A stretch of DNA of 60,574 nt, the filler included, from Hausera hauseri (lineage: Eukaryota): the NCBI GenBank assembly GCA_046269625.1. It is 11 parts of 11 records of this genome, joined end to end, with 100 filler letters (N's around TTAATTAATTAA, not from the genome) between each part and the next. Parts side by side here need not be neighbours in the genome. Positions count along the whole stretch, not along the records: positions 43,724 to 49,051 come from JBJURY010278507.1; 10 more parts are not named here. One strand, given 5' to 3'. How positions within the stretch are numbered: position 1 is the first letter of the stretch; the number at the start of each line of letters is the position of its first letter. Below, piece by piece: positions 9,822 to 60,574 of this stretch. A program made the position numbers and the translations under genes. The notes beneath the pieces were generated by a model that was not told the origin of the DNA, did no database searches, and was given only the letters and a program-made list of their open reading frames with translations.

Positions 9822-11166
9822 GGCGAAACCTGTAATCGCAAATCAACTGTCGGAATGGTCCGAATTAGTAACGCAATTAAGCAAATTGGTAGAAGATCTC
9901 AAAACAAAATTTCCCCAAAGCGAGCCAACGGTAAAGAAACAAATAGAAGAAAGTGCGCACAACCTAGGCACGATGTGAATAGAGATAGACATCCGTACTA
10001 AATTCGAAGCGCTACGACGACTAAAATTTATGGAAAAGGAACGAGAAGCATTGATCATGGAGAAAATCTACAGACTGATCGAAGAGACAAACTTTACGGA
10101 AAAACGGAACATGATTTACAATGTAAACTCAAAGTTAAAGATTGTTCAACTCGAAGGAGTACAATACTTAACAGGAAAACCAATCGACGAAATTTCTGCA
10201 CAAAGCATTGAAATCCTGGACATTTGTCCAGAGCATCGAGATAAGTTAATGGTGGCAATAAAGTTTTTACACAAACCTCAAAAATGGATGGCCGGGTCAG
10301 ACCAGAATTTCCATACCAATTTGATAGAAATAGGAAACTACCCACATTCTAGTTTTCAGTAACATAAATTCGTAAAGAAAGTGTCGGATGCAATGGACCC
10401 TGATTCAAAAGTTATAAATGAGGTGTATGAGTTAGCCTATATATTGGTGAAAATGGCAGAAATAAGTGATGAGCAAATAAGGCAATTGATGTCCAAGATA
10501 CAGAAAATAAAAGAAACATGTATTAAGACGAAACAAAGAGCGACAATGTTGGATGAAATAACAAAGAAACTTGAAGTCTATCGAAACAAATATGCTTTTA
10601 CCAAATCAGAGATTAAGAATAAACGCGAATTTGTACAAAGATGTCAAAAGGATGTAATTCTTGAATTGACAGATTATCACCAGAAAGGGCTAGTTTGTCC
10701 GAACGTATTGGGCGAGTTATTGAAAATGATTCAGTATGCATGTGGAAACGGAGTAGGTTTCCGAACTACGCAAATGAAAGAAATACAACTTAGATTAAAG
10801 GAAATTCGGGAAAATATTCAAAGAGCCAATACGGCTTTAGCAGACAACTGACTTCCGTATGCCGGAAACGAACCCGAATGGGATGCAAACTTCGACGAAA
10901 TACTTGCCGGAAAACATATGACTCCAGTACAGCCAAACGAAATAGAAACAGGTTCGCAGGACAGGAGATTCAATGTGTAGATAGTACTGGATTTAGCGCT
11001 AAATGAAAAGGATTTTATTGAATTATTTAACATAAATATTACTGAAAACAAATTAAAACAACTTATTTCAACTTTAACTAAATTGTCCAGTGAGAACACA
11101 ATTTATATCACGGTGCCGAAACTTTTGATAAGGAAATATGTTAAAATTTTAAGGAATAGGCCTGAG

Positions 11167-11391
11167 GTGACGATAAAGGTAATGGTGTTATCCGAATGGA
11201 TAAACGAAAAAGAATGCGAGTTGATTACATATTCCTACGTAAAGAACGTAAGAAAATGGCTAGTAAACAACGGTGGAACGAACGAGTTAAATTACATATT
11301 TTAATTTAGAGGTAGAAGATTCAATGATCTAGAACAACTAATAGACGTAGGGATTATTCCTGACGAAACAAATCGGATAGTGGTCGTGATA
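11167..11391 (+). other. Ubiquitin-like (beta-grasp) domain within family B polyprotein
   Basis: VTIKVMV...ELITYSYVKNVRKWLVNNGG...FRGRRFNDLEQLIDVGIIPDETNRIVVVI aligns by eye with ubiquitin MQIFVKT...[20 protein letters not shown]...[27 protein letters not shown]. Confidence 0.65.
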
Positions 11392-12110
11392 ACTAACGAA
11401 CAAACAAAAGAAGAAGCCACGCGTAAAGCCAAAACAGAACAATGCGTAGGACAAATTATGGGAGTTCAAGACGCTGCAATGTATTTTGAGTATTTACAAA
11501 CAGACGAGGATAAGGAACAATACGACATAAATTTAGTACCAATGAGTAAAATATTTACTAAGGGTCCAAGACCGAAACGCCCAGTAGGTAGTCCTAGAAT
11601 AGTGCGAGAAGAAGTAGATTACAATGGAGAGTTAATTAGAGAATTGAAACAGATGTCGATCCTATCTCTTAGCACAGATAATGAAGAATTAAGCGAGTTA
11701 ATAAAAAATTTAATACGAATTGTAAATTATTCAAGCCTTCGAGGTGATGTATTAGATGATAAAGAAAAGACAATATTCAATGCAGCTAAGATGATGCGAA
11801 GTTCGCGTTTCAAACCATCGAAAAGTAACTTAACCGATGAATCGGTAATCGATAAGATTATGGTAGAAACACCAATGAGGAGTTGAGAAAAGTGTTATTA
11901 TATTTAGCAATCAAGATAAATCCTAATCGAGAGAACGAAATTAATAAGGCTATAAGTTTAGCACGGAAAGCAGCAAGAAGAATGACTTGCAAAGTAAATT
12001 GGACAAGACTGTTTTATAAGGAAGAAAACAAACGAAACAACAACAAACTCGACGACATGTTACGTAACCTGACGACGTCAGCCTTTGGAGGTCGAAAGAA
12101 TGAATCAAAC

Positions 12111-13500
12111 TGGCTGATTAGCTTGCTCACCTTAATCATGCTAATAAAGCACATAGGCGCCGTAACCGTATATGATTGCAATAAGTTTAAATTAAGACAG
12201 AGATATTCTTTAATGGACCTAGAAGTATGCGAGGACGCCAGACCGCACAAATTGGAAACAAGAGAAAAAAGTTACTTCATGCATCAACAGCAAGAATTAG
12301 TATCATTAGACGAAATGGAGTGTATGATGAGACGATCACGTAGCATTTTTCACTGTGGACTAGTACACGGACATTCCTCCATAATCAAGCCAACTACTCC
12401 TCTTATTCCGATGAATGTAGAGCGTCAACATTGCAAACAAGCTAAGGAAACTGGAAGAATACAGTGGGACGGAATGCAATTGGAAATGCAACCCGGAAAA
12501 ATAATCAGAGCGTACAAAGTAGTAGCTGGAAGGCTGGATATGCATAGCGGACATTGTAATGGAGCAGAATACGATACCGGAAAAGGATTAGAATCAAACG
12601 TTGTGGATTTCTACGACTCAGAAATGCGATCACAAAATGTAATGTTCCGTAGTGTCACCAAGTTATACACTGAGAATCAGAAATGCCATTTACAAGACAA
12701 ACCTGTGCTTTTAGAAGTTCGGTTATAATATGGGAACCTCCCTCTGGAAGAAGCTGTAACTTTATCAAAATTAAGTAGTTAAAGTATGATGAAACTACCG
12801 GAAAACAATATGTAGACAAATCGGAGACTAATTCAAGAACACGCGAAGATGTGTCAAAACACCCTATACCTACTCTATTAATCTCGGACCCGCACGGACT
12901 AAAATTTATAAAAAAGAGATGATGACTCGTTGTGATGTAGTAATGTTCGCCACAAACTATGAAGCGTTCTTTGTAGCCGAAATGGAGATAAACGCAAAAA
13001 CCTACAAATTGGAAATGCAGGATGTCCGGATTGAAGATTACCTGAAAAATAGAGATGATTATTTCTACTATAAAGGACAAGTCGGAATAACGGAATTACA
13101 TCGCAAAATGATAATGAATGACTGCAAATTTGATACAAAAATCATGAGAACTAAAATGGCTGTTATATATGCAAACCCAGAACTAGCTTCTCCAATAATT
13201 CCCATAATGGAAGGAATTTTCGGTCGAATTACGGGCGAAGTATTACTTTCCTCTGAATGTGAAAAGAGAGAAGTTCCCATCAACGTAGAGGAAAAACGTT
13301 GTATCCAGGAACTTCATGTTATTTATCAGAATACTCCAAGATTAGCTACACCATTGACGAGAGTGCTGTTGGATAACGCAACACAACCAATCATCTTTAA
13401 GGATTGTAAAGCAAGCTTAGGACAGCCAATGTTTAGACGTAGTGAAACAGACTGGGTTAGTTTACCTAATGGAGGTATTACTGCCGCTCCTAAGAAACGA
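12111..13500 (+). pseudogene. Chuvirus-like (class III, gB-type) envelope glycoprotein ectodomain, TM region deleted
   Basis: Signal-like WLISLLTLIMLIKHIGA then VYDC, SLMDLEVC, FHCGLVHGHSSI, GHCNGAEY, KNRDDYFY, GEVLL..CEKREV...C.QEL.V...LATPLTRVL. This cysteine/motif pattern is typical of chuviral and retroelement-captured glycoproteins. Confidence 0.82.
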
Positions 13501-13789
13501 GATGTTGTATTCACCGAGAGAGCCTAGAAATATTGAAACTAGACCGACAGTTTGGGACAACCCAAAATTACGAACATTCAAACATAATGAACTACATACT
13601 AACAATCGACAGCCGCTAATTAGTACTCACAAAATGGAAGAATTGCACGTAGAAAACAACTAATTATATCCAAACAAAGAGTTAAGACAGTTATCGGAAA
13701 ACATAGTATCCGCCCCAGAAGTAAGAATAAACGGACACAAAATATCAGTGACTAAACATTCGAAAGTAGCATCAAACTGTTTTGGAACC

Positions 13790-14413
13790 GTGATCGAAGG
13801 AAAACCTTTCGCCAAAATCATTATTGAAGATTGGGAAGTTTATGCGCTAACTGATACGGGTTCCGAAATGTCTTACATCAAAAATGATTCAATACCTCAA
13901 ACGCTAAGAGGACAATTATATTCGCCGTCTACGATAGATCCAGTCAGTACCGGAGCTTTTGGCCAAACGTCGAAACCAATGTTTAAATGAAACCCAGAAG
14001 TCCAATTAGCTAGATGAACTGTTCGGCATGAATTTGCAATCATAGAACAATTAACTGATGACATCGTTCTAGGATGCGATTTATTGAAAAGGCTACTAAA
14101 TATAGCAGTCGACTTACAAACAGGAAAACTAAATGAGATTAGACCAAAAAGGGCGTGAAGAACGCTAAGGATAGAAAATTCGGGAAGTGTGGATACCAGT
14201 AGACGAGAACATTCCGCCAAGAACGGAGATAATAATTTACGCACAGATTCAGCAAGATAACTATCAGCCAGTATATTTTGAGCCAAGGGCAACGTTAAAT
14301 CCTTATAAAACACTCAGTAATGTACTACCGAGAGTACACTCCGGTCGTGTACCAATCAGAATAGCTAATAACTCGCTGAGTCCTGTCAAGCTCCATGCTT
14401 ATAATACTTTAGG
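13790..14413 (+). pseudogene. Retropepsin protease and post-protease spacer of family B
   Basis: VYALTDTGSEMSYI, DIVLGCDLL, then IPPRTEIII...GRVPIRIAN. Confidence 0.8.
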
Positions 14414-26308: not shown

Positions 26309-26477
26309 GACTCGACGGGGGCTGGAAGAAATTGACCCAAATTTGTCAATTGTTCAGGAGGGGCATGTGAATGAATTTATCTATTGTTCGTGATTTGTAG
26401 CGGATGGATGCAGGTTCGAATACTTTATCGTCAACAGTGGTAGTTTCATCTAGTTGCAGATGCCTTTTCCTGCCACA

Positions 26478-27007: not shown

Positions 27008-27124
27008 ATCGCTATCTTTTATTTTATCAATTCTTCGAAGGGGGATACTTTTATATTTAATGTAGTCTGGTTCCGGAAGATTGAAGCATTTTCCTTCAGG
27101 GAGGCTCGGACAGAATTTTTCGTT

Positions 27125-27574: not shown

Positions 27575-27775
27575 GAACGTTGACGAAGATACTGCAAGAA
27601 ACAAAGTCAATGTGATTCTATACACGATATTTAAATTCAACACAACGGTTATCATACACATCACTAAGGTAATCGTTGTGGTTATTGGGGAATGAATTCG
27701 ACTATAAGTAACTAGATGTTGTTTGGCTATCTTTTTTCTTAGGGTTGCTTTGATAGCAATCCCTGTGACTAATTG

Positions 27776-37809: not shown

Positions 37810-40800
37810 AATACATTATCTGACAAACAAGTTATATCTGGTTCAACAATAGTAGTTAAAGGTCTACCAACGAGAAAATGAGCGGGCGAAAGCGCTTCTA
37901 AATCATTTGCATCATTAGACAAGGGACTAATAGGTCGCGAATTTAAGATACCCTCAACTTCAACTGTAATAGTAAGAAATTCTTCATATGTGAGTTTTAG
38001 ATTACCAATTGCTCTTTTAAGGTGAAATTTAAATGATTTAACTCCAGCTTCCCAGAGTCCACCAAAATGTGGAGCTCTAGGGGGAATAAATTTCCAACGA
38101 ATTGTCTCTGAAGTGAGGTAATTTGCCAGTACTTCATCAGGGTATTTTACTAAATTGTGCAGATGTTTTAATTCACGGCTGGCGCCTATAAAATTGCTTC
38201 CATTATCCGAAAATATAGTGGTACATTTTCCACGTCTAGATATAAATCTTTTCAAAGAAGCAATAAATGAATCTGTAGTTAAGTCCGAAACTAATTCCAA
38301 ATGGATAGAACGTGTAGCTAAGCATATGAAAATTGCGACATAGATTTTATTCAATGTACCCTTACGTTGATTCCTATATTTAACGAAGAACGGACCACAA
38401 AAATCAATGCCAACATTAGTAAATGGAGGACTAGGCGTTACTCGTTCAGTGGGTAAGTTACCCATAATCTGATCTGAAACCTTTGGTTTATTCCTGAAGC
38501 ATACTATACATTCGTGAACTATTTTTCTGGCAATGTTTCTACCTCCCAAAGGCCAGAATTCCTGCCTTACCAAGTAAAGGAGGGTTTGTGCACCAACATG
38601 CAAATACTTACAGTGAAAATATCTCATTATAATCACTGTAAATCTATGACCCCTAGGAAGTAGGATTGGGAATTTTCGATCATATGATAGACTTGAATTC
38701 AGTAATCTACCTCCAACGCGAATAATTTCTAGTTTATCTAAGAAGGGATGCAAGGAACTCACATGAATATTTTTTACCTTGTTTTCGTTTTTAAGGGCTT
38801 TCAATTCATTAGAAAAAGCCGTTACCTGAATCAATTTTATTAACCTAATTTTTGAATCCTGCAACTCCTCATTTGTTAGAGGTCCTACTTTTCTATTGGC
38901 CTTAGCAGTTCTTGAGTTGTGAAGAAACCTGCAAAGAAAACTAAATACACGAATTAATTTTGAGTAACTATTACTTAATTCTAAAAAGTACTCAACAAAG
39001 AAAGTATTGCTTGTAGAAGATAAACTAATTTCTGATTGTCCTTTAAGTTCGGATAAATAAAGATCATCTGAAATGACCGCAGTATCAGGTATAATACTGG
39101 AATCTTCAGCCGAGTCCGGTGTACACTCAGGTCCATACCACCATAAGTCCGCTGCTTCAAGTTCTTGAGGGTTTAAGCCTCTAGATATGATATCTGCAGG
39201 GTTAAGATGCGACGGAATATGCTTCCACTGGTAATTTTCGGTTAAAGTCTGTATTTTCGACACTCTATTGCCGATGAAGGTTTTCAGTCTATGTGGAGGG
39301 GTGTTTATCCAGGCCAATGCGATTGTTGAGTCTGTATAACAAATGATTTCGCAAATATTCATTTGAAGAGAAAGACGAATTCTTTCCACCAGTTGTGACA
39401 GAAGGAGACACGCTGACAACTCCAAACGAGGAATCGAAATGACTTTGACTGGGGCTACTCTAGACTTACTCGCTATAAGCTTATTGACAGCTGTGTCATT
39501 TCCCAATTTACATTGCATGTAAACAGCAGCACCATATGCTGATTCAGAACTATCTGCATACCCTAACATACTAATTCTTTCAAAAGACTCTGTCAGGATA
39601 TATCATGGGATTTTTATATTTTCTATGAGTTTCAAAGAAGTCACAAATTTTGACCATTCCTGTTCGATTGACTGTGGTAGAGTATCTTCCCAGTTTAACT
39701 TTTGAAGCCATAATTTTTGCAAGAAAATCTTAGCCTTTGTAATAACTGGACCAAGGAGGCCCAATGGATCATAAAGTCGAGCAATAACCGACAAAACACC
39801 TCTCTTAGTGTAGAAAGGCTCAACCCTTAAGTCTACTTTAAAAAAGAAATAATCCTCTTTAGGATGCCAATTCATACCCAAAGCCTTGACTGTAGAATGC
39901 TTATCGACAAAAAAAGGTTCTTCGTCATGTGGATCTATACTACTATTTAAAAGTTCAGATGAATTCGAAGTCCATTTGTGAAGTTGCATTCCAGCCTTTT
40001 GAAAAAGTAATGTCAATTGTGTTTGAAGTTCCTGTGCTGATTCCAGATCAGCAGCGCCACTGACAACATCATCCATATAGACATCACGCAAAACTATTTT
40101 TGAAGCTATGGAAAAGGTATGTGCTTCGTCCATAGCAAGTTGCTTGAGAGTTCTTATAGCTAAAAATGGCGCGCAGGCAGTCCCATATGTTACTGTATTC
40201 AAACGATATATAATGGGATTTTCATTTATGTCTGTCGTCCATACGATTCGAAGGAAGTCTCTTTGAGATGGCTCAATTAAAATTTGACGAAACATTTGTT
40301 TAATGTCCGCAGTAAATGCATATTTATGTGTTCGAAATCTAGTCATTATATCAAAGATATCTTCAGTAACCTCGCCCTTCAACAAAAAATCGTTAAGAGA
40401 TTGACCAGAAGGTGCAGGTGATGACGCATTGAAGACCACACGAAGTTTAGTTGTTGGTTTATCTGGTCGATATACGCCATGGTGTGGAAGATAATAGCAA
40501 TTATCAGGCCAGTGTTTATTGTCTATCCTTTCCATATGACCCAAATTTTCATATTCCAACATGAAATTTCTATAAAGTTCTTGCATTGGTGGGTTTCTTG
40601 ACAATCTTCGATTTAACTGCCTCAACCGTAATTCAGCAATGCATTTGGAATCACCCAAGAAATCAACTTCCTCTCTCATTGGCATCGTGACAATGTAACG
40701 ACCAGTTTCATCACGCCTATGAGTACGCTTAAAATGCTCTTCACAATATTTAGTCTCCTCACTCATAATTGTCTGACTCAAATCAACTTCTTCTAATTTC

Positions 40801-42725
40801 CAAAATTTTTCTAAACAACTATCAATATCAGAAATCCGAGAAAGACCACAATAACCATATGTTTGCCGTGTCGTTTCAACTAGACCACTGGCTATATACC
40901 CAAATACAGTATTTTGAAATATAAGAGACTTCAAAGAAGTGCGAACATGATTACCCTTAACAATGTCAAAAGATATATCTGCTCCGAATAAAATATCAAC
41001 CTTTGATGGTGCCATAAATTTAGGATCCGCCAAGGTCGAATAATGTGGAATTTCTATGCCATCGATGGTCAAATAATTTGCAGGAACCATATCCGTAATC
41101 TTAGCAACCACCAGAAAATTCAATGATGTCGAAAATGAACCATTGAAATTTGAAATTCGTGTGAAAACACTATATTTCACATTAACTATGTTTTCACTTA
41201 ATCCAGAAATTGCGACGTTTACCTTTTGATTACTTAAACCAAGTTCAGTAGCAAATTTTGACGTAATCAAATTACTTTGGCTTCCGTTATCCAGAAGCAC
41301 TCTTCCCCGTATATAGCTATTCTTCTGGGGTGACCATACCCAAATAAGAGCCGTTGAAAGCAAAACAGTTTTATTCGATGAATTCTGCATAGCAGAAAAA
41401 TTATGAACAGTTTGATTACTTTTATTCAATTGATTTATTTCAGTGGAAGCATCAGTAGACATTGGCAGTTTAACTGCAGAATTTCCTTCAGAAGAGGGTG
41501 CTGAAATTAATTCTTTAGTAGAAGCATTTGTTTCACTCGAGGACTTATTCTGATTTCTGCATAAAAGATAATTATGCTTTTCCGAACATATTCGACAACA
41601 ATAACTTGAGTTACATGTAGCTAATTTATGAGAATCAGACAAGCAATTTAAACAGAGGTTATGCTTTTTTACAAACTTAAATCTCTCAACAGGGGTCAAA
41701 TTTAAGAACAAGGTACATCTATATATGACATGTGGCTTTTTACACATAACACATAAATTACTGTTCTTATTAACCACAAAGCTTTTTCTTTTATTTGAAC
41801 TAACTTTTGGTTTCAGTAAAGGTAACTGAACCCCTTGTAAATTCTCTAACACTTGAGAACGCTTTTCTAGGAATTCAATAAATTTGTCCCATTTAGGTAA
41901 CTCAGTCGACGTTAAACTCATCTCAAACAGCTTACGTGTATCTTTATCTAATTTTTGCACAATAATATTTATTAAAATTTGTTGTGCTAGTTCAGTAAGT
42001 TCGAGCTTCATCAATTTTAAACCTCTCAAATTTTTATTTATTACATCGACAAGATTTCTTAAATGTGTAGACGATTCTACGTTAAGCCTTTCTGTATTCA
42101 AAATATTTAAGATGTGCGTATTTACAATTAAACGCTTATTTTCAAATCTTTCCATTAATACATTCATCAATGAATGAAAAGTATCTTCCGGCGTTTCAAT
42201 TTGTTTGACATCCCCTTTTAACGCCGAACGTAAATAAAATAATCTCTGTATATCGTTTAAAGCAGAGTTATTAGTAATTAGACTATCAAATTGCGATTTA
42301 AAATTGTTCCAATTATCAACTTGTCCATCAAATTCAGGTAGCTTAATATCAGGAAGTTTTACAGAACTAACATTAACTTTATTGTCAATACCAGACTGTA
42401 AACATTCACCAAGTTCAAATAAAGTTTTTTGCAAGCCTACCTTCGCTTCCTCCAAGTCTTCTTCCATAGCATCGAACTGCGAATCCATTTCCGGAAGTTG
42501 CTCGTCTTCTAAAAGTTCGTAATATTTCTGTTTCAACGCCTTTAATTCAATAGTAATTTCAGCAACACCTTCTATTTTACTTCTTATTTTGTACCTATTA
42601 GCCGACGCAACCTTTTCCTTCAAAAATGTTTGCAACTTCGTAATTCTAGCCCTATAGTTGCCTTTATTACGATTTAAAGTTTTTAGCCTTTCTTCAATGG
42701 CGGCTTTCTGTTCAGGAGTCGACAT
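37810..42725 (-). CDS. BEL/Pao Gag-Pol polyprotein with one premature TGA at 39603-39605; continues at 43546-43246 across the circular join
   Basis: The 1108-aa and 603-aa ORFs are in the same frame; KIP*YIL replaces the usual IPR (CGA>TGA). Confidence 0.9.
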
Positions 42726-42798
42726 TTTGCAGCAAAACGAATTGGTCTCAAACGAAGAAGTAAACATATAATTTTCAAATTTTAACCTTTCACAGTTT

Positions 42799-42818
42799 AC
42801 TCCGGCTACCAAGGACCA
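42799..42818 (-). promoter_or_regulatory. Primer binding site (tRNA-Tyr-like)
   Basis: TGGTCCTTGGTAGCCGGAGT, 6 nt after the LTR end; resembles TGGTCCTTCGAGCCGGA. Confidence 0.7.
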
Positions 42819-42824
42819 AAAATA

Positions 42825-43235
42825 TGTTGTGTTCTTTTTGTGGACTGTAAATTTCGAGTTAAAAATAACAACTAAAAAATCCAGACAATATTTTATTTTC
42901 AATTTAAGATGCCGACTACATCCTTTCAACTTAATAGCGAACTAACCACACGAGCAACAACTCACGATCGAGTCGCGCCCTTTTGGGGTTACTATTTTTG
43001 GCAGAGCGTCAAGCCTGACTTGGCGCCCGTTACCGAGGAAACGGATGCGCCAACATCCCGCCCGACGCTGCAGTGTCACACGACACACAAGAATTTAAGT
43101 TGACAAACAAATGCAACAATTGAATACTAACAAAATTTTAAAAATGTTAAAATTAAATGCAATACAAAAGAATTAAAATATAAATGACATAAGTGATTTA
43201 AAAATTTCAATATTTACAATAAAATGACATAAACA
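42825..43235 (-). repeat. BEL/Pao LTR (~411 bp)
   Basis: TGTT...AACA between the pol stop (43246) and the PBS. The 5' boundary is less certain because the PPT is weak. Confidence 0.7.
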
Positions 43236-43623
43236 TCCTTTACAATTAATCAGTTCTTATTGGCAAAATTGCCAATTTAGCAATGGGGCGTTTCAAGAGG
43301 CCCGACTTAGTTTTAACAAGACAAACTCTTGCCCTTTTATCTTTACCCAATATGACCTCTACTATTCTGCCCAACAGCCAAGTTGTACAAGGCAAGTTGT
43401 CTTCCTTTATGAGCACCATTGCCCCTGGAACAACATTATCCTTATCAAATTGCCATTTTGATCTTTGCTGGCAGTGATTCAAGTAATCACGTTGCCATCG
43501 CTTCCAAAGATATTGCGTAATTTTTGTAGTACGCTGCCATCGCTTCAATACATTATCTGACAAACAAGTTATATCTGGTTCAACAATAGTAGTTAAAGGT
43601 CTACCAACGAGAAAATGAGCGGG

Positions 43624-43723: not shown

Positions 43724-44585
43724 CTGGGTTCCATTTAAACATTGGTTTTGACATTTGGCCAAAAGCTCCTGTACTACCCGGAACTTTCGTGGACAGCGGA
43801 TATACCTGTCCTCTTAACGTCTGAGGTTTTGAATAATTTTTGATGTACGACATCTCGGAACCCGTATCGATTAACGCATAAACTTCCCAATCTTCAATAA
43901 CGATTTTGGCAAAAGGTATTCCTTCGATCACTGTTCCGAAACAGTTTGATGATACTTTCGAACGTTTAGTCGCTGATATTTTGTGTCCGTTTATTCTTAC
44001 TTCAGGGGCGGATACTATGTTTTCCGATATCTGTCTTAATTATTCGTTTGGATATATTTCGTTGTTTTCTACGTGCATTTCTTCCATTTCATGAGTGCTA
44101 TTTAGCGGCTCCCCATTGTTAGTATGTAGTTTAGTATGTTGGAAGGTTTTTAATCTTGGGTTGTCCCAAACCGTCGATCTACTTTCGATATTCTTAGGTT
44201 CTCTCGGTGAATGCAATATTTTGGGATCAACTGCGGATTGCCGCTAACACATTTTCCGTAAAATCCCATATAGTTTTGTTCCATCATAAGGATTTTCTAC
44301 ATTAATTGTTCTTTTATAGATTTCCGTTTTATATGAGCTCATGGATCGTTTGTCACAATCTTCGTAAAATAGAGCGGTAGGGAGTAACATGGGTAATGGC
44401 GCTTTAACTACAGAGTACACCTTGTGTCTATTTATCCCTGAGAATGCTTCTCCTCTTTTAGGCTCGTCATCATCTGAATTATTTCTTCGTATAATAGGTT
44501 TTGTAGACTTCCGCTTCCGTAGGAATAACGGTCTCCCTCTTCGTTTACAATTATAGTAATCGACATGACGTTCTACGTCCGCTTT

Positions 44586-46325
44586 CTATCTACTCTTTTC
44601 GTATGCTTTTAAAAATTTTCCAAAAGGCGTTATAATTGCAGTCAGAATTTTATATGAAAATCCGGTTAGTGTAAATATTTCGTATTCGTTTATCACGGCT
44701 TGGATAACTGCCTTAATCATTTGTATCAAAAAATATATCTCTAAAAATCCTGATGCGGCTTGTCCAAAATTTAAAAATCTTCCCCAGATTTTGTAGAGTA
44801 TTTCGGTTGTCACTCTCTGATAGTGGATTACGCCTAGTAATGATTCTCATTTAGCCTGATATCGTGTGTCGTCTACTACAGATGACATCGCTCGATTTAG
44901 CTCATGCTTTCGTTGTCGTAGGAAGGCGAGAAATTGTCTGAAGGCCTCAATTTCCGTCGGTATGTATATACCTTTTGACGAGGTGTCTTGAAATTTACCG
45001 TCTGTGATACCCTTCGCGATATTCGTCCCTGCTAGCTTGTTACGAACATCAGTGATACCTCCATTAGGTAAACTAACCCAGTCTGTTTCGTTATGTCTAA
45101 ACATTGGCTCTCCTAAGCTTGCTTTACAATCCTTAAGAATGGTCGGTTGTGTCGCGTTATCCAACAACACTCTCGTCAATGGCGTAGCTAATCTCGGAGT
45201 ATTCTGATAAATAACAGGAAGTTCTTGGATGCAACGTTTTTCTTCTACGTTGATGGGAACTTCTCTCTTTTCACATTAATAGGTTAGTAATACTTCGCCA
45301 ATTTGCAGTCATTTATTATCATTTTATGATATAACTCCGTTATTCTGACTTGTCTTTATAGTAAAAATAATCATCCCCATTTTTCAGGTAGTCCTCAATC
45401 CAAACATCTTGCGTTTCCAATTTGTAGGTCCTCGCATTTATCTCCGTTTCGGCTACAAAGAATGCTTCATAGTTCGTGGCGAACATTACTACATCGCAAC
45501 GAGTCATCATTTCTGTTTTATAAATTTTAATCCACGCGGGTCTGAGATTAATATAGTCGGTGTAGGGTGTTCCGATACATCTTCGCATGTTCTCGTCTTA
45601 GTCTCCGATTTGTCTACATATCGTTTTGCGGTAGTTTCATTAAATTTTAACTCTTTAATTTTGATAAAGTTACAGCTTCTTTCAGAGGGAGATTACCATA
45701 TTATGACCGAACTTCTAAAATCACAGGTCCCGTCTTGTAAATGGCATTTCTGATTCTCTGTGTATAACTATGTGACACTATGGAACATTACCTTTTGTGA
45801 TCGCATTTCTGATTCGTAGAAATCCACAACTACCACGTTTGGTTCTAATCCCTTTCTGTTATCGTATTCTGCTCCATTACAATGTCCGGTATGATTATTC
45901 AGCCTTCCAGCTACTACTTTGTATGCTCTGATTATCTTTCCTGGTTCATTTCTAATTGCATACTGTCCCATTGTACCCTTCCATTCTCTTTGGCTTGTTT
46001 GCCATGTTGACGTTCTAAATTCATTGGAATTATCGGAGTAGTTGGCTTAATTATGGAGGAATGTCCGTGCATTAGGCCACAGTGGAAAATGCTACGGGAT
46101 CGCCTCAACATGCATTCCATTCCGTATAACGATATCAGTTTTTGTTGTTGATACAGGAAGTAACTTTTCCCTCTTGTTTCTAGTTTGTGCGGTCTGGCAT
46201 CCTCGCATACTTCTAGATCAATTAAGGAATATCTCTGTCCTAATTTAAACTTATCGCAATCATAGACGGCTACCGCACTTATATGCTTTATTAACATCAG
46301 TAAGGTAAGCAATCTAATTAGCCAA
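44586..46325 (-). pseudogene. Chuvirus-like envelope glycoprotein with C-terminal membrane segments
   Basis: AVYDC...FHCGLMHGHSSI...KGIY...WGRFLNFGQAASGFLEIYFLIQMIKAVIQAVIN..EIFTLTGFSYKILTAII. Confidence 0.85.
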
Positions 46326-47043
46326 TTTGATTCATTTTTCCGACCTCCAACGTCTGACGTCGTCAGACTACGTAACATATCGTCGAGTTTATTGTTGTTT
46401 CGTTTGTCTTCTTCCTTGTCAAGTAGTCTCGTCCAATTTACTTCGCAAGGCATTCTTCTTGCTGCTCTTCGTGCTAAGCTTATAGCCCGATTGATTTCAT
46501 TCTATCGATTAGGATTTATTTTGATAGCTATGTATAGCAATACTTTTCTCAATTCTTCATTCGTGTTTTCTGCCATGATCTTTTCAATTACCGATTCATC
46601 AGTTAAATTGCTTTTCGATAGTTTAAAACGCGAACTTCGCATCATTTGGGTGCATCGAAATTTATCTTTTCTTTATCATTTAACATATCTCCTCGAAAAC
46701 TAGAATAATTCATAATTCGTATTAAATTTTTCCTTAACCTGCTTAATTCCTCATTCTCGGTGTTAAGGGTTGGAATCGACATCTGCCTCAATTCTCTAAT
46801 TGACTCTCCATTGTAATCCACCTCTTCTCGCACTTTTCTAGGTATGCTTACTGGGCGTTTCGGTCTTGGACCCTTAGTGGTTGCTTTGCTTAGTGGTACT
46901 AAATTTATGTCGTATTGTTCTTTATCTTCGTCCATTTGCAAATACTCAAAATGTAGTGCAGCGTCTCGGACTCCCATGATCTATCCTACGCATTGTTCTG
47001 TTTTGGCTCTACGTGTAGCTTCTTCTTTTGTCTCTTCCTTAGC

Positions 47044-47268
47044 TATTACTACCACTATCCGATATGTTTCGTCAGGAATAATCCCGACATCTATTAATTG
47101 TTCCAAGTCATCTAGTATTCTACCTCTACAATAAAATCTGTAGTTTAACTCGTTCGTTCCACCATTGTTTACCGGCCATTCTCTTACGTCCTTTACGTAG
47201 GAATGTGAAGTCAACTCGCACTCTTTTTCATCCATCCATTCGGATGACACCATTACTTTTATTGTCAC
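47044..47268 (-). other. Ubiquitin-like domain (family B copy 2)
   Basis: VTIKVMVSSEWMDEKECELTSHSYVKDVREW..NNGGTNELNYRFYCRGRILDDLEQLIDVGIIPDETYRIVVVI. Confidence 0.68.
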
Positions 47269-49051
47269 TTCGGGGCTAGCCCTCAAGATTTTAGCGTACT
47301 TCCTTATCAAAAGTTTCGGCACCGTACTATAAATCGTGTTTTCGCTAGACAATTTAGTTAAAGTTGGGATGCGTTGTCGTAATTTATTCTCGGTAATATT
47401 TTCATTAATTAATTCAATCAAATCCTTTTCAGTTAGCGCTGAATCTAGTAGCATCTCTACATTGAACCTCCTGTCCTGCGGACATGTTTCTGTTTCGTTT
47501 AGTTGTACTGGAGTCGTAGATTTTCCGGTAAGTATTTCGTCGAAATATGCATCCCATTCGGGTTCGTTTCAGGCATCCGGAAGTCGATAGTCCACTAAAG
47601 CTGTATTGGCTCTTTGAATGTTTTCCCGAATTTCCTTTAATCTAGGTTGTATTTCTTTCATTTGCGTAGTTAGGTAACCTACTCCATTTCCACGGGCATA
47701 CAGAATCATTTTCAGTAATTTGCCCAATTCGTTCGGGCCAACCAGCCCTTTCTCGTGATAATCTGTCAATTCGGGAATCATATCTTTTTGCCATCTTTGT
47801 ACAAATTCTCCGATTCGGTAAAAGCATATTTATTTCGATAGACTCCAAGCTCTTTTGTTATATCATCTAACCTTTTCTCTGTTTGTTTTGTCTTGATACA
47901 TGTTTCTTCTACTTCCTGTATCTTGAGCATCAACCGCATCATCTGCTCATCACTGATTTCTGCCATTTCCACTAATAAATAGGCTAGCTCATACAGCTTA
48001 TTTATAACCTTTTAATCAGGGTCCATTGCATACGACAATTTCTTTACAAACTTGTATTCCTGAAAGCTGTAATGTGGGTCTTTTGGATTTCTATCAACTT
48101 TGTATGTAAATTCTGGTCTGATCCGACCATCCATTCTTCAGGTTTGTGTAAAAACCTTATTGCGTCCATTAACGTATCTCGGCATCCTGGACAAATGTCC
48201 AAGATTTCAATGTCTAGTACAGAAATTTCGTCGATTGGTTTCCCGGTTAAATATTGAATCCCTTCTAGCCGGATATTTCTTAACTTTGAATATGCATCGG
48301 AAATCATATTCCGTTTTTCCTTAAAGTTTGTCTCTTCGATCAATTTGTATATTTCCTCCATCGTCGACGCTTCCCGTTCCTTTTTCATAAATTTTAGTCG
48401 TCGTAGCACTTCAAATTGATTACGGATGTCTATTTCTATCCGCAACGTAGCTAAATCGTGTGCACTTTACTCTAATTGCTTCTTCACCGTTGGCTCGCTT
48501 TGAGGAAATTCTGTTTTACGATCTTCTATCAATTTGGTTAGTAGCGTTACTAACTCGGACTATTCCGACAATTGATTTGCGATTACAGGTTTCGCCATTA
48601 TGGCTTTATTTAGGATCTTATAGGCATCTTCTAACTCATCGTCTGGTACTTTTAGGAATTTCATAACTCGACCGACATAACTAAACTCGTCCCTATACTC
48701 GTCCAATTCTACGATACAAGCCTTTATTGCATATTAAGTATCCTCGTTGTTTGGGAACATAATTAAATTTCTCAAACTATAGATCTGTGCTCCTATTTCA
48801 TTTTCGATTTTAATACGACTCTCTAAATTCGTATATCGTCTATGTACGGCAAACGTGAGTTTAATCATCTCCATTAAGGGAAGAATATCTACTAGGTCTA
48901 TACCCAATATTTCTAAGTCGATATTACTTCGATGGTTAACCGGTTTTTCCATAAGTCGTTTAGTCATTGCGTATCGAATTTCGTCCATCATACGTTCTAA
49001 ATTACGGACTACTCTCTTCAATTTTGGGTTTTCCTCCAAAGTCGATAATAG

Positions 49052-49151: not shown

Positions 49152-52100
49152 TGAAGACGGATGGTTAAAGGTATTCAAGAGATTGTTAGAAGACGAAGGA
49201 ATGATAAAATGTGTAGTGGCGATGAAGGAAGAGAGTTGAATATTGCAGTAGAAGTTGGAATTGTATTAGGCGAAAGAGTGGAAGTGGAAGATGAAACAGG
49301 GGTTGCGGTAGAGAGAGGAAAAGAGATAGGGATAGAAGTAAAGAGAAGAGGAAGTTGCAAAGCGGAAATGAAAGGGGTAGAAGACGATGTATGAGGAGAA
49401 AGGGAGAAAGAAACCTCCGAAGATGAAGAAGGTGTGAAAGGAGAAAGAGAGAGAGAAGACGGCGAAAAGGGACAAATCGAAAAAAAGCAAGAAGATGGAG
49501 AAGGCAAAGGAAAGTAGTTGGAAGGTGGTACGATGAAAGGGGTAGATGCAGAAATTGGTGAACTTGAAGTGGTGTTTGGTGGAGGAGGTCTTGTAAAAGG
49601 AGAAAGCAGGTTGTCACCAGGGGATGAAGTAGGTGTGAAAAGGCTTGCAGGTGCAAAATCGGATGGGGAAAAAGAGACTGACGTGTCAGAAAAAATTGAA
49701 GTGAAAATCTTGGACGAAAGCGTAGGTAAAGTGGGTTAAGAAATTGAGCGGAGATGGAAGGTAAATTGTTGAATTGTTGCGCGTATGGTAAAGATGTTGT
49801 TGGAGAAGTGGTTTCGATGGGAGACGTACTGTCAATGAAGAAAGCCGGCTTAGCGTTGTTGATGTGGACTTTTACTTCTTTTTCGTCCTTGAGAATGATG
49901 ATGTTGTAAGAGTGTAAACGGATTACTTTGTAATGGCCAAGATACTGAGTTTGAAAACCACACGGCGTCTGATTCTTCAACCATACAAATTTGGCAGTAT
50001 ATAAATCGTCGGATATGTAAGGTTTATTTCCGTGTAATAGTCTACAAAATGAGTCTTTGCTGATCGCAATGAAATGTCTCTGAACCGCTTGTATGGTTTT
50101 GTCTGTAGGAATATTATCCAGCTCAGCCAGCTCGAATAATGGTCTGATAGAAGTACCAAATAATGCTTCTGCAGGTGAAAAGCCTTTCGACGTAGATGAT
50201 GTGTTTTGCCAGCCAAGCAGAACGTACGGACGGAATGTAATGCAAGTGCGATTGGACTCAGCAAGGATTTTGAGAGACGTTTTCAACGTTCGGTGAAAGC
50301 GTTCGAGCAGGCCATTCAATTGAGTATGATATGGTGACGTGTGAATGTGGTTAATTCCCAATCGATTGACAAGAGCTTTAAACAGGTTGGATTCCAACTG
50401 TGGGCCTTGGTCCAAAATGATGTGGCGAGGTGATCCAAACCTGCTGATCCAAGTGCGGATGAAAACGTCTGCGATTGTTTCTGTATTGGTGCTCCGAAGC
50501 GAGACAGCCTCTAGCCATCGCGGGGAACGGTCCATCATTGTGAGGATGAGATGATGGCCGTTGTCTAAGGGTAGTGGGCTTACAAGGTCAATGTGAACAG
50601 ATTCAAAACGAGACGTGCAGGAAAAATGATACAGTGGTGGCTTTAGGTGCTTAGTAACTTTGTATTTTGGCATGCCACACACTGCCTAACTCATGCCTGC
50701 ACGTCAGAGAGCATCAACGGCCATACTACTTGGCATTGTAAAAGTCGAAAAGTGGCCTTGGCACCAGAATGATGCAACGAATGGATGTTTTTGAATGCTT
50801 CTTTTTGGAGTGATTTAGAAGGTATGACTTTAGGATTATTAGGTTTGGATGTGTCAAAGGCTACACCGTCGATGGTTTTGCACGATTTAAAAGATTTAAG
50901 GATGTCAGAAGGTGGCTGGTTTTGTTGAAGTTTGGACTGAGGGAAAATTGGTGTAAAATCAATCGAGCTGACCGATCGGGACAAAAAGTCAACTACTAAA
51001 TTTTCGACTCCGTTTAGATGCTTAATTTCAAAATTAAATGTGGACAAATACGATATTTGCCTCTCCTGACGCGGAGAAGGCAATTTCATGGTGAGAATTT
51101 TAAGCTATGGCTTGTGCTTCGTTTGTACTCTAAAGGTTCGTGCGGTTAGCAAACGCTTAGTGTTTTACGGCAAGGACATTGCAAGCAACTGTCTGTCAAA
51201 GGTGGAATATCTTTGCTCTTGTGCCGTGAATTTTCGAGAAAATAATTCTAATGACTCATGGGATCCATTTTTGACTTGATGGAGGAAAGCACCTGCAGCT
51301 GTTCTGGATGCATCCGTGGTTAAGAAGAGTTCTGCATGGGAGTCGGGATAGACCAGGATTTCGACGGTTTTTAGATTATCTTTGAGGTGATCGAAAGCGT
51401 TGACTAGCTGGGCGGTCCATTGAATAGGCTGTTTTTCTTGCCAGAGCTTAATAATGCAAATGGAGCGGTTAGAGTGGAACAGTGTGGAATATACTTATAA
51501 ATAAAGTGCAAAGTTCCGAGGAAAGAACGCATCTCTGTTGATGTACGTGGTAGCTGTATGTTTTTTAGCTGTGTAATGAGCTCTGGCTGAGGTGAATGTC
51601 CGGAGGAGCTAATAATATGTCCTAGGAAGTTGACCTTATGTTGGAAAAAGAGCATTTGGTGAAATTAATTTGCAAATTGTTTTGGTGCAAGCGCTGGAAG
51701 ATTAAACGCAAGTGCTTGGAGTGTTGTTTCGAGGAAGATTATGCAATTAGTATATCATCGATATAGGGAAAGACAAAGTCTAAACCTGAGAGGACTGTAT
51801 CAATATGCCTTTGGGAGGTCTGAGAAGCGCTACGGAGTCTAAAAGGCATGAAAAGGTATTTGAAAAGGCCAAAATGTGTAATGACAGCCGTTTTCTGAAT
51901 GTCTGCTGGTGCTACCGGAATTTGGTGGTATGCTTTGTGCAAATCAATGCAAGAAAAAATGGTCGAACCATGGAGATTGTGAAGGATGTCGTTGATTAAT
52001 GGAAAAGCGTAGGCATCCATTGTTGTTATGATGTTGAGTTGGCGGTAATCACCGCATGGGCGAAAGGTACCATCCTTTTTGGAACCACATGTAGAGGTGA

Positions 52101-54304
52101 AGACCAGGGGATTTCGATCTTCTGATTATTCCTGATTTTTCCAGTTCGAGAAACTTAGCCTCCACTGCCTGTCTGCGGCTAGGCGATAGCGGGCGGACCT
52201 TTTGACGTATTGGTCTTTGATGTACTGTTACTATGTGGTGGAAGGTGGATTTAGGTAGTACGAATGATTTGTCCTTTTGCAACAGACATGTGTAGGAAGA
52301 CGAAATATATTGCTGTAAGTCAGAGGGCAACGATTAAAAATTTTCAGATGGTGCCGATGCATCGTGACTGGATGCAGTTGAGGTATAAGTTGTAGACGAG
52401 GTGTTGTGACTAGGTGGTATTAGGTGCAGGATGTTCGTGTTGAAGATGGTGTTGGCTGCTGTATTATCATTAATAGGTGCCACGCAGTTGGCAAAATTGT
52501 ATTTGTTGCCGTAATAAAAATTTCTATATAATAAATGATTATAAAAATAATTTAAATCGGAAGTCGTTTTCTTTAGTATTGATTTGCTAGAAACGATCGC
52601 CCGGGTGGTCACCAAAATGCTGATAGTTTGGTTAAAATGATTTCCGCTTTTTAAGGATCATCGTTTGCAGTCTACAAGTAAATTGTACTGGGACAGAAAG
52701 TCTGAACCCAATATAGGTGTGGATACATTGGCTACTGTAAATTTCAAAGTGAATGTGCTTAGGAAATTTGGAAGTTTAAAAGTTAATTTAGTAACACCAA
52801 AAGTTTGTAAAGGTAAACCGGACGCAGTGAACAGTTGCTTTTTTGAAGTGAAATTGTTTTGGATGTGCTATGTTGGTGGTAGTAAAGAGATTGCTGTGCC
52901 AGTGTCAATGAGAAAATGAATGTTTTGCTTTGTTGAAGTGACGACTGCTGCTTCCAACGTGAATACAGCAAAAGAAATGTGTCGGCTATCTTTTTGTGGG
53001 TTGTTGCTTTTGCTAGAACTTGCCGTGTATCCTAGCGCTGGAATCAGTTTTTTGTAGTTGGTAAGTTTGGTCTGCTATTTTGTGTGAGTTTTGTAGTGTT
53101 GATTTTATTGTACGTATTGTAGTTACAGCCAGGTAAGCATTTTTGTGCTTTTATGCCAAATTTGGAGTGATAGATGCAAACAATGTTGCTTGTATTAAAA
53201 TGGGGTAGTAAAATTTACAACCGATGCAGCATTTCTGAGCATTGTTACCAAATTTGTTGTGATAGTAGCAAATAGACGAAGGCGCGGGCATAGGCGACCG
53301 TCTTTGTCGTTGAAGCAGCCCTATAAAAATCTCGTCAAGGCAGCGTTAATTCATTTAGTTTCCCGTTTATGTTATTAATTTTTTTTGCAAATTTTCGTTG
53401 TCTGCGTAATTGCATAATTTGTTTCTGCAGCAGTGCATTTTGTTGTTGGTGGTTTGTTGTTAATGCCGCAGAGACAGTTGGTGCTGTGTGTGAGTGCAAC
53501 TCTTCATAAGCTTTGTCCGCCAGTTTGTCTAACTTTTCCAGTGCCGTGGAGTCTTCGACGACAGTGAGCAAAGCTCTTATTTGAAGGGGCAATGCGTTTA
53601 AAAAGTAACGACGAAGAAGTTCTGGACTATGCTCAGATGTTACGCCAAGGGTATTGATGTGAGACAAAGATGTGCGCAAGAATTCAGAAGGTTTCTGAAG
53701 GTCCATGGCGTTGTCGTTGAAGAACCTTTGAATGATTGAATCTATTGACGGCTCAGTAAGCTTAAGAATGGCATTGTAAAGTTGAGAATATGGATCGGTG
53801 TGGTGAAAGATTTCGATGATGTGGGTAATTTTCGTTTTGGTAGAAGTAGTTAAGTGGAAAAACAGGTTGTTGGCTTTAGATAAGGGGTCGACGACGTTTT
53901 GTGATTGGAGCCAGAGTCGATGCAATTTTAACCACGTTTGGATATAATTTGGACTGTCGAGGAAGTATTCTGTGCAGGGTGAATAAATGGGGAGTGTGTG
54001 ATGTGTCGGAGTGTTTGAAGCACTTTTTTTTGGTAGTAAGTGATGGAGGTTGGTGGTTTGGTGGCTTTGTCCGTGGTATCTATGATGGGGAGGAAATCAT
54101 GCCATTACGTACATGGGGGTAAACGTGAATAATGAAAGAAGATTGTGTTGAAGAAATGAAATCGGCAAGAGTGGAGAGGATGAGGCCGTGATGACTGAGG
54201 AAAAAGTCGTTTAAGTGTGTTGTAGTGCGGATATGATTGTACAATTGGATTATTGTAGTGTGTTGTGTTATTCCGTATGTTGTGGCTTGTTCATTGTTTA
54301 GAAA
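49152..54304 (-). mobile_element. Decayed Ty3/Gypsy (family A, copy 2): gag-pro-RT-RH-INT plus low-complexity tail
   Basis: Gag 53925-53044, FLIDTG, IDLHKAYHQIP, PYIDD, LTTDAS, VHIDLV.PLP, DQGPQ, NGLLERFHRTLK. Confidence 0.93.
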
Positions 54305-54404
54305 NNNNNNNNNNNNNNNNNNNNNNNNNNNNNNNNNNNNNNNNNNNNTTAATTAATTAANNNNNNNNNNNNNNNNNNNNNNNNNNNNNNNNNNNNNNNN
54401 NNNN
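54305..54404. other. Artificial contig-join spacer
   Basis: N44-TTAATTAATTAA-N44. Confidence 0.99.
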
Positions 54405-56447: not shown

Positions 56448-57430
56448 GCACTATGTTTTATGAACCTTTTTAATGTCAAAATTATAACTTTTTATCAATA
56501 ACAGCAGAATATATTTTTTAATCATGTCATTGAATTTTTGGGCAGTTTCAGTCATTTTCGTTTGATTTGTTTGTCAAGAGTGACTGTTCCACATGTAGAG
56601 AATTAAACCCAAATGTTGTAAATAAATGCAATGAGCAAGGCTAAATTCCGATGAGAATATACAGCAGAAATACGACTATAATTTCTAAATTTTATTTTTC
56701 AACTATCACCAGGAATCAATAATCAATTTTATACATAATATACATCATATTCTGTTTCCAAGATAATGTTTCCCACTGCCGTTTATTGCACTTAAATTTC
56801 CTAATCATCAACCGAATTTTAAATACAAACCATAAAATTGAAATGATCATTGGTTACATTCACAAGTAGAACATGTTCTATTTCTGAAAATATGTGTGCG
56901 TGCACATTTCTTTTACAATTTGTGGGGAAAAATGTTGGTATAGCCACAAGAATCGTTGGATTGTCCACGAGTATCACAAATGAGATATTTCTAAATACAA
57001 TCCGCATAAATCATATTCAACATTTTGTACGCTTTTTCCAAAAAATTTGTAAACTTAAACTGAGAATCTTTAATGGTTCAACGAAATTGATTGAAGAAAA
57101 ACTGTTTGATGTTTTCTCCATAAAGTTCGAACAAATGGATGTCGAAGATTTCACGATTTTCTCGCAACACAATGAATTTCATTAATTCCAACTTTTTCTA
57201 TTGATCACAAGTCAAAGATAAATGCTCGATTATTTCGTCTCAATGATAAGGTGATCACTAAGATAATGCGTAATTACTATATTCATCCATTCAGAGATAT
57301 TTGCTCCACCAGCGCTAACTCCATTTAACAGCAAACTGATTTCAATACAATTTTGATATTTCATCTCATTTCCATATGACAACGCTACACTTGGTATTCT
57401 GAGATTACACTTGATATTTACATGGTGAAC

Positions 57431-57488
57431 GGAAATCCTCCAACCGATCCGCTAACCCCTCCAGTGCGACCACGCTTTAAGCACTACA
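57431..57488 (-). repeat. Conserved 5' cap of LTR-like segment (copy 2), at the 3' LTR position
   Basis: TGTAGTGCTTAAAGCGTGGTCGCACTGGAGGGGTTAGCGGATCGG, immediately after the 3' UTR of copy 4; homologous to 806-864. Confidence 0.7.
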
Positions 57489-60433: not shown

Positions 60434-60574
60434 GTGCCGTTAGTTCGGAGCAATGTGGCTCGTACATGTGTACGAAGTGCAGTGTCCCTAGAAAACTCCT
60501 CATGTCGGTAGTGGTAATTGGTAATGTCACATTTTTCAATTGTTGTAAGCGATCAGGCTAAGGCGAATGACCTT

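Follow-up and report, generated by a model that had tools for sequence, protein, structure and literature searches.

Does the contig at 43724..49051 hold a viral-type fusion glycoprotein (Env) inside a retroelement polyprotein, ahead of the protease, and would such an order be new? The window (the whole stretch analysed; 60,574 nt of Hausera hauseri DNA, filler included) was built of 11 joined contigs, and 43724..49051 coincides exactly with one of them, bounded by N44-TTAATTAATTAA-N44 spacers; a 121-nt repeat family (D1) proved to be this contig spacer. The contig quite probably represents a piece of a Burro-like Ty3/Gypsy element in which a gB-type Env stands in frame before the protease, within one Gag-Env-Pol polyprotein.

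Modules of the two copies

Two copies were compared, and the modules of copy 2 were assigned as follows:

43724..49051, minus strand: copy 2; occupies the whole contig; interior piece of a decayed, probably Burro-like Ty3/Gypsy element, both element ends off-contig
9822..14413, plus strand: copy 1; 85-90% identical to copy 2, without the Env C-terminus and the linker start
47430..49051, minus strand: N-terminal region, largely helical-looking; purifying selection, dN/dS about 0.25
47047..47382, minus strand: helix and putative ubiquitin-like module (beta-grasp part about 47047-47268), common to P0154, P0009, P0044 and P0002
46345..46645, minus strand: segment before the Env signal; dN/dS 0.11
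46268..46327, minus strand: internal signal-sequence-like hydrophobic segment, ending A-V-A right before the conserved YDC of Env
44790..46267, minus strand: gB/chuvirus-type fusion glycoprotein ectodomain (PF24664), with stops, frameshifts and a 103-nt loss
44589..44789, minus strand: WGxF motif, transmembrane helix, then amphipathic stretch of Env
44586..44588, minus strand: stop codon, 66 residues past WGxF
43932..44585, minus strand: 218-codon in-frame coding linker, with two further stops
43724..43931, minus strand: aspartic protease, N-terminal part; D-T-G at 43868, ends at the contig edge

The order is ubiquitin-like module, hydrophobic signal segment, PF24664 ectodomain, membrane anchor, coding linker and aspartic protease. 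PF24664 (Monjiviricetes_fusion) matched the glycoprotein in its N-part (E 1.2e-10, profile 5-128) and in its C-part (E 1.1e-25, profile 383-609); the longer protease piece of copy 1 was matched by RVP (E 3e-5), and the truncated piece of copy 2 gave no Pfam match of its own. The signal-like segment was judged by hydropathy and sequence. The N-terminal region is interrupted by frameshifts near 48079 and 47806; no Pfam family, CCHC knuckle or match in the relatives was found for it, and about 550 upstream codons match nothing. A Gag knuckle had been reported as absent upstream, and no CCHC was seen in five pieces scanned (~900 upstream codons); the frame continues off the contig.

The module upstream of Env also occurs in four relatives (E 5.8e-5 to P0154). 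With a 4-sequence profile, ubiquitin-fold chains were obtained in 60 of the 60 PDB rows listed (of 99), and the module was found upstream of Env in two proteins outside the profile (iE 1.9e-8 and 3.6e-6); atlas leads, PF11976 included, stood at 0.85-0.87. No Pfam match was obtained, and the single piece gave 0 matches by phmmer against the PDB. AlphaFold gave pLDDT 40 for the single sequence 46984-47568 and 51 (poor) for the four-sequence module, with beta-beta-alpha-beta-alpha-beta order; Foldseek with the pLDDT-51 model returned no ubiquitin fold and no significant match. A ubiquitin/SUMO-like domain upstream of Env is thus present as judged by sequence profile, the fold search not confirming it.

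The segment 46345..46645 lies where Burro, P0001 and P0010 have their BCL2-like motif. PF00452 matches are weak in the relatives (P0010, E 1e-3; P0001, E 7e-3); the pre-signal segment was aligned to the BCL2-like part of P0001 solely by prolonging the Env match, and 46361-46645 on its own showed no significant BCL2 likeness (77/500 shuffles scored as high). Copy 1 reaches on through the protease and a stretch in the dUTPase position (14175-14411), which is weakly similar to the post-protease stretch of relatives (iE 0.002-0.05) and gave no Pfam match.

Reading frame and selection

According to the original prediction, the two copies combine into one frame, and this was found: upstream breaks in either copy are bridged by the other. 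In copy 2, IEKIMAENTNEELRKVLLY is in frame with the signal segment, and the 1-nt deletion postulated for copy 1 before the signal peptide is present, near 11867; copy 2 has a 1-nt loss of its own slightly upstream of the signal, near 46645, where copy 1 is intact. From the transmembrane helix of copy 2, one frame leads through the linker into the protease, as had been proposed, and is kept down to D-T-G (43868). The three point stops announced for this frame were located at 44586-8, 44244-6 and 44040-2; the last is, as stated, a sense codon in copy 1, and the other two fall, again as stated, within ~817 nt absent from copy 1, these linker stops being covered by one copy only (copy 2). Damage additional to that described earlier comprises a fourth in-frame stop, inside the Env of copy 2 (44847-9), which more than 99% of the depth in contig-mapping run X1 does not share, as well as further frameshifts and the 103-nt loss in the ectodomain of copy 2.

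Linker stops numbered 3 in 219 codons in the inferred frame, the two alternative frames having 12 and 22; dN/dS between the copies was 0.06-0.50 in the inferred frame (10/10 segments) versus 0.43-6.0 in the other frames. Because stops are few and in-frame dN/dS is low, the in-frame linker is more than chance; the weakest dN/dS signal comes from the linker part common to both copies (0.50; third-position p 0.52). Purifying selection continues across the module junctions. The location of Env inside the polyprotein, upstream of the protease, was confirmed by the PF24664 matches, the frame and the selection.

Relatives, other origins and the stop at 44586

A HMMER search with Env gave 160 matches, and eight of the nine best are polyproteins of 801-2855 aa with Env and then protease. 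Neither word-seeded searches of proteins with the C-half of Env nor DNA collection scans gave a match, and an atlas search with the Env N-part gave no usable match; these blanks weigh little, since the full HMMER search gave 160 matches. Among the top 19 relatives, 18 extend to the membrane anchor; the protease motif lies in the same ORF in 11 of these 18, and 7/18 end without protease; at ranks 20-150, it was found in 3/126. Several relatives run on into RT, RNase H and integrase, or start with Gag: RT-RNase H-integrase follows the protease in P0002, P0005, P0151 and P0154, RT and RNase H in P0007, and an N-terminal Gag with CCHC knuckles is present in P0002, P0006, P0009 and P0013. Relatives have 129-389 aa between WGxF and the protease; copy 2 has about 304. 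Env identity to the nearest relatives is about 30%, and the Ty3/Gypsy placement rests on these ~30%-identical proteins because RT, Gag and LTRs lie off-contig. In the Env tree, a 98/90 split joins copy 2 (long branch, 1.71) to 12 rows holding 9/9 protease-fused proteins, with 26 rows without protease on the other side. The single N-terminal/Env/Pol polyprotein put forward by the original prediction is supported by these intact natural relatives, as is the module anatomy.

It is extremely improbable that the element is a BEL/Pao (Anakin-type) one with a captured chuvirus glycoprotein. The glycoprotein family would be the same, and a BEL-type arrangement (DUF5641 then PF24664) occurs among the weaker matches (P0057); P0057, however, stands on the opposite side of the 98/90 split, the protease of the present element comes after Env, and the domains found in the fused relatives are RT_RNaseH, Integrase_H2C2 and Retrotrans_gag, with DUF1759, Peptidase_A17 and DUF5641 all absent. 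Anakin-type features (Env after integrase; DUF1759, Peptidase_A17, DUF5641) were not found in the present element.

The contigs holding the copies are short (4.6-5.3 kb) and the assembly is repeat-rich, PF24664 is a family of chuvirus glycoproteins, and none among the contigs listed in run X1 spans the full stretch; a chuvirus-derived glycoprotein inserted independently, or a chimera of the assembly, could look like this if it stood ahead of the protease by chance. Such an origin is nevertheless very improbable and already largely refuted: the same order is found in two independent contigs (copies 1 and 2), the junctions are under purifying selection, the nearest homologues are Env-protease polyproteins and not free-standing glycoproteins, and run X1 shows no coverage deficit over the Env bins (depth does not measure copy number). 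In that run, 14,542 contigs map onto the copy 2 stretch, with 30/30 bins covered; the element is likely a many-copy family. A free-standing chuvirus-type EVE (~650-700 aa, with a signal peptide start, ending soon after the anchor) was rejected because ~900 selected codons lie upstream and a coding linker and protease downstream. An ENV-GAG-POL order, with the linker as a short Gag, was dropped; the linker is without Gag family or knuckle, and the Gag of relatives precedes Env.

The stop at 44586-8 directly follows the anchor and the amphipathic stretch, as would be expected if it were a family trait, Gag-Env ending after a short Env tail and Pol being made via read-through, splicing or an internal start (first Met at 44390). 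In the available part of PMC13524379, GAG, ENV and POL are three ORFs, with gaps up to 2000 nt allowed. When run X1 was applied to 44225-44615, 27 majority differences from copy 2 were obtained in 44265-44582 and none at 44586-8; third-position excess was strong in 44265-44457 (13/20, p 0.004) and absent in 44491-44582 (1/7). This comparison is, however, edge-limited: 44586-8 lies 28-30 nt from the stretch end, no listed row is closer than 34 to an end, and a difference at 44230 in the full-stretch comparison disappeared near the other edge of 44225-44615; the run is undecided on the 44586 and 44244 stops since both are near edges. Against a family trait, none of the 18 top relatives reaching the anchor ends at or before the 44586 position, 11 continuing into the protease, and, without read-through of the stop, a separate ORF would have no need of one frame kept over 218 codons. 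CARYYA is a read-through context after a stop, and the bases after the 44586 stop do not match it. Copy 2 has four stops in 517 codons, and one at 44586 is therefore expected from decay. A family-wide stop is accordingly unlikely, and decay is the likely cause. A leaky stop after the Env tail, by which Gag-accessory-Env would be abundant, a small fraction would be Gag-Env-Pol, and Pol would be packaged via the fusogen tail, is judged rather improbable; it would place the control point between Env and Pol, where retroviruses have it between Gag and Pol.

For the single Gag-Env-Pol polyprotein, we infer signal-peptidase processing and Pol tethering. Gag upstream and RT-RNase H-integrase downstream would lie off-contig, as in P0002, P0006, P0009 and P0013. 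The internal signal would direct the ectodomain into the ER lumen, and host signal peptidase would cut before YDC, freeing Env; the N-terminal part would stay in the cytosol, anchored via the signal remnant. The anchor would stop transfer, leaving linker-protease-Pol on the cytosolic side and tethered to the Env tail, and Pol would be released by the element's own protease. A single membrane would then carry Gag, Env and Pol in a 1:1:1 ratio, with no need for a frameshift or for splicing. The stops of copy 2, 44586 included, would represent post-insertion decay.

Comparison with known systems

In the part of Arkhipova and Yushenova (2019, PMC6431247) consulted, the giant planarian Ty3/Gypsy elements Burro/GYPSM1 have Gag-(ubiquitin-like)-(BCL2)-Env-protease in one ORF, with env in frame between gag and pol, mononegavirus-like glycoprotein matches and a ubiquitin/SUMO-like domain upstream. 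The present element resembles it in an Env of the mononegavirus fusion glycoprotein type (PF24664) placed in frame between N-terminal region and protease, a candidate ubiquitin/SUMO-like module upstream of Env (by profile), a conserved slot between this module and Env, occupied by BCL2 in Burro, and many diverged copies; after the protease, copy 1 has a stretch in the position of a putative dUTPase. Unlike Burro/GYPSM1, it lacks MATH, BIR and ankyrin motifs within the contig part, as well as a demonstrable BCL2 motif; its ~550-codon upstream region is without matches, and its copies are decayed. The likeness is to the published description of Burro, and any giant size or long LTRs of the Burro kind would extend beyond the 4.6-5.3 kb contigs. 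A UBA1 fragment was 54-70% identical to proteins of many eukaryotes, without a close match among named ones; kinship to Burro at most suggests a flatworm host. BURRO1 is expressed after piwi knockdown, according to the part of PMC8532177 consulted; neither that paper nor PMC12440569, as far as consulted, bears on the gene order.

The GAG-ENV-POL order is described in nematodes, bryozoans and flatworms for HSV/gB-type errantiviruses (Chary and Hayashi, PMC13524379, passages found), with which the present element shares the gene order and a gB-type Env between a signal/TM segment and a TM, upstream of Pol; Env domains I-II resemble S. mediterranea rows of supplementary file 2 (by eye, unaligned). 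GAG, ENV and POL are spoken of as three ORFs in the passages found, which do not address in-frame fusion, and 'polyprotein', 'fused' and 'ubiquitin' have 0 occurrences in PMC13524379. Anakin-type BEL/Pao elements and chuvirus glycoprotein EVEs (Dezordi et al. 2020, as described in the same passages) share the PF24664 family but are of another retroelement superfamily, without protease after Env, and fall across the split of the Env tree from copy 2. Non-canonical nematode ERVs also have Env before Pol, as cited there. Unlike the present element, they form a nematode clade. A continuous gag-env-pro-pol ORF was reportedly found in nematode ERVs by Sacco et al. 2022 (J Gen Virol).

The novelty implied by the original prediction for an Env-before-protease order did not stand, that order being already published (PMC6431247; PMC13524379, three phyla; both as far as consulted). 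No treatment of the cutting and packaging of such polyproteins was found in the literature searched; the intact relatives, rather than the decayed copies 1 and 2, make this question testable. Added here are a divergent family and a set of intact natural polyproteins (P0001-P0013, P0151, P0154). The latter show three traits to be clade-wide: Env placed within the polyprotein, an internal signal ahead of YDC and the putative ubiquitin-like module. Since gene order and in-frame fusion are both published, the architecture is not newly discovered, and because the layout is already known from Burro, the element probably adds a new member to a known group.

Reading frame and selection in the two copies

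Features of the two decayed copies (positions, strand, feature)
43724-49051, minus, copy 2, one entire contig
9822-14413, plus, copy 1, a second contig, aligning to copy 2
44847-9, 44586-8, 44244-6 and 44040-2, minus, in-frame stops of copy 2, the first inside Env

Copy 1 and copy 2 were 84.7% (3317 nt), 90.1% (263 nt) and 87.5% (496 nt) identical; the spacers between the 11 contigs read N44-TTAATTAATTAA-N44. The fusion glycoprotein (Env) matched PF24664 (Monjiviricetes fusion) in its N-part (E 1.2e-10) and C-part (E 1.1e-25), and the copy-1 protease piece matched RVP (E 3e-5). As originally noted for the part beyond the TM, copy 2 stays in one frame, interrupted by stops only; this frame begins in the ectodomain and reaches the D-T-G of the protease (43868). 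The 219-codon linker between Env anchor and protease contained 3 stops in the inferred frame vs 12 and 22 in the other frames. The three linker-side stops were found as described: 44040-2 is a sense codon in copy 1, and 44586-8 and 44244-6 fall, with 44847-9, in a gap of ~817 nt absent from copy 1. Upstream of Env, 1-nt losses were located near 48079, 47806 and 46645 in copy 2 and near 11867 in copy 1, the last being the expected deletion ahead of the signal, intact in copy 2; the sites differ, and each loss is thus bridged by the other copy.

Copy-to-copy dN/dS in the inferred frame: upstream region 0.25-0.26; just ahead of the signal 0.11; Env 0.06-0.39; shared part of the linker 0.50; protease 0.22; other frames 0.43-6.0. 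Only two hydrophobic segments were clear (~46321 and ~44747), a third at 48901 being marginal. No CCHC knuckle was seen in the five pieces scanned, in agreement with the noted lack of a Gag knuckle upstream. The placement of Env ahead of protease is real and had been spotted correctly.

Protein relatives, upstream modules and other elements

Word-seeded searches for relatives gave no matches; a full HMMER search, with the C-terminal half of Env plus linker and protease as query, found 160, 19 of them with E up to 1e-10. Nearly all relatives (with handles such as P0001) are ENA predicted proteins. Pfam was run on 16 matches picked mainly by length and 5 cluster members: Env followed by at least one protease in the same ORF was found in P0001-P0007, P0009, P0013, P0151, P0154 and P0156; RT-RNase H-integrase after the protease in P0002, P0005, P0151 and P0154, with RT and RNase H noted in P0007. 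Ahead of Env, P0002, P0006, P0009 and P0013 carried a Gag domain or knuckles. In an unselected count of the top 19 matches the anchor was reached in 18, with a protease motif in the same ORF in 11 of these 18; among ranks 20-150 the motif occurred in 3 of 126. The distance from WGxF, the motif before the anchor, to the first protease motif was 129-389 aa in relatives vs ~304 in copy 2; the linker sequence matched none of the relatives. An ML tree was built on the Env C-half from 39 rows, namely copy 2 plus the 38 longer ones among 150 matches; in it a 98/90 split set copy 2, a long branch, and 12 rows including all 9 protease-fused proteins against 26 protease-less rows.

P0002 (HBK71150.1), a full knuckle-Env-protease-RT-integrase polyprotein, is filed as a Flavobacteriaceae MAG hypothetical protein, probably through contamination of a bacterial bin with animal DNA. 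Several protease-like domains (2-6 per ORF) were present in P0151, P0009, P0001 and P0005; P0151 (4844 aa, ankyrin and C2H2 motifs) is near Burro ORF size.

Module upstream of Env (positions, strand, feature)
47047-47382, minus, helix and ubiquitin-like stretch, matching P0154

The match to P0154 had E 5.8e-5 (among 156 proteins), and likeness to P0009 was noted by eye. With an E limit of 10, a four-sequence profile of the ubiquitin-like module matched 99 PDB sequences, the best 60 all being ubiquitin, ISG15, NEDD8, SUMO or similar, each weak (best single-domain E ~0.004-0.02); the same profile also located the module ahead of Env in two proteins outside its four sequences, P0044 and P0002. 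An atlas search gave ubiquitin/SUMO-like leads (scores <0.9); Pfam gave no match, and the low-confidence structure model had none in Foldseek. No di-glycine end was seen in the module, which is therefore likely an integral domain rather than a conjugated tag. Ahead of the Env signal, P0010 and P0001 have a segment that is BCL2-like by weak Pfam matches; the window segment is well conserved between the copies, and its likeness to the BCL2-like part was not significant (77 of 500 shuffles scored as high).

Related pol in the window (positions, strand, feature)
25374-33046, minus, decayed Gypsy pol; RT, RNase H and integrase homologous to Env-fused relatives

Compared with Env-fused relatives, the principal blocks of this pol (RT, RNase H and integrase) scored 36-48%, with E 1e-149 to 1e-173 to four full-length relatives; the other Gypsy contigs were far more distant, at 1e-62 or weaker. 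Past the integrase follow a signal-like segment (~29170), repeats rich in beta structure, which resemble FN3 by eye and had no Pfam match, a TM (~27930) and a 366-codon open tail; hydrophobic segments past the integrase occur likewise in P0002, P0005 and P0154. This contig probably represents the Pol part of a sister family.

The remaining contigs are mostly Gypsy, BEL/Pao or PolB-type element pieces, and the window is for that reason taken as the repeat fraction of a eukaryote, probably an animal: 14516-16708 (minus), short-ORF cluster, several RING fingers and one BIR domain, IAP-like; 37810-43623 (minus), near-intact BEL/Pao polyprotein (1112 + 597 codons, one intervening stop), an identical 77-nt repeat at both contig ends being likely assembly overlap; 5395-9721 (minus), decayed PolB (DNA_pol_B_2) with endonuclease VII, presumably Polinton/TATE-like; 231-842 (plus), UBA1 (E1) fragment, ~150 codons uninterrupted, residues apparently lost, 54-70% identity to many eukaryotes, Gypsy remnant downstream, which may be a captured retrocopy; 49152-60574 and 2500-5294 (three contigs), related Gypsy pol fragments; 54405-60574, two tandem units bearing integrase, spacing 3583 nt.

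The stop after the Env tail

In X1, a public sequencing run from a single study that shared 0.19 of the sampled words and may be the source organism or a relative, 14,542 contigs matched the stretch at 80% likeness and 30 of 30 bins were covered, Env bins not below upstream bins (depth is not copy number). The in-Env stop 44847-9 was not common to >99% of summed depth. The difference listing comprised the best 40 of 1141 rows, depth again not being copy number. On 44225-44615, 27 majority differences were listed; 44586-8 and 44244-6 were not among them, both lying within 30 nt of an end. No listed difference came closer than 34 nt to an end, and a 44230 difference of the wider comparison vanished. 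Third codon positions held 14 of the 27 vs copy 2 (p 0.036): 13 of 20 in 44265-44457 vs 1 of 7 in 44491-44582, a split picked after data inspection.

The main rival takes the stop after the Env tail as genuine, Pol being reached by read-through or from a separate start. Seven of the 18 anchor-reaching top relatives stop 2-88 residues beyond the copy-2 stop place and none before it; P0010, which lies in the fused clade, ends there with an aberrant-looking tail. We consider this rival unlikely, and likewise the boldest reading, in which a leaky stop is programmed to separate Env from Pol; a continuous Env-protease frame stays the likely reading.

Within the linker, 44449-44490 (a 40-nt stretch encoding N-S-D-D-D-E-P) had 10-50x the flank summed depth in run X1, with many loose contig ends on either side; it is a short motif retained across diverged subfamilies.

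Proposed working and known systems

The gene order, the shared frame, the selection and the unbroken fused relatives are observed; the processing steps are drawn from what is generally known of how polyproteins are made. The hydrophobic segment inside the polyprotein ends A-V-A just before YDC, conserved in Env, and has a counterpart in relatives; it would act as signal, with a signal peptidase cut before YDC. In the lumen the Env ectodomain would adopt a class III fusogen fold, and the anchor would serve as stop-transfer, leaving linker, protease and Pol cytosolic and joined to the Env tail, from which the aspartic protease would free all three. Gag and the accessory region would be held on the same membrane by the signal remnant. 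A search of openly accessible papers found no study of how a Gag-Env-Pol polyprotein is processed.

In PMC13524379, gB-type GAG-ENV-POL elements are described from nematodes, bryozoans and flatworms, six of them in S. mediterranea, with Sacco 2022 cited there for nematodes. The present Env-in-polyprotein family is a further member of an already described layout. It is probably a member of the broad Burro clade and is predicted to work like a Burro-type polyprotein, the likeness to Burro/GYPSM1, giant planarian Ty3/Gypsy elements (PMC6431247), being in the proposed Gag-Env-Pol polyprotein design.
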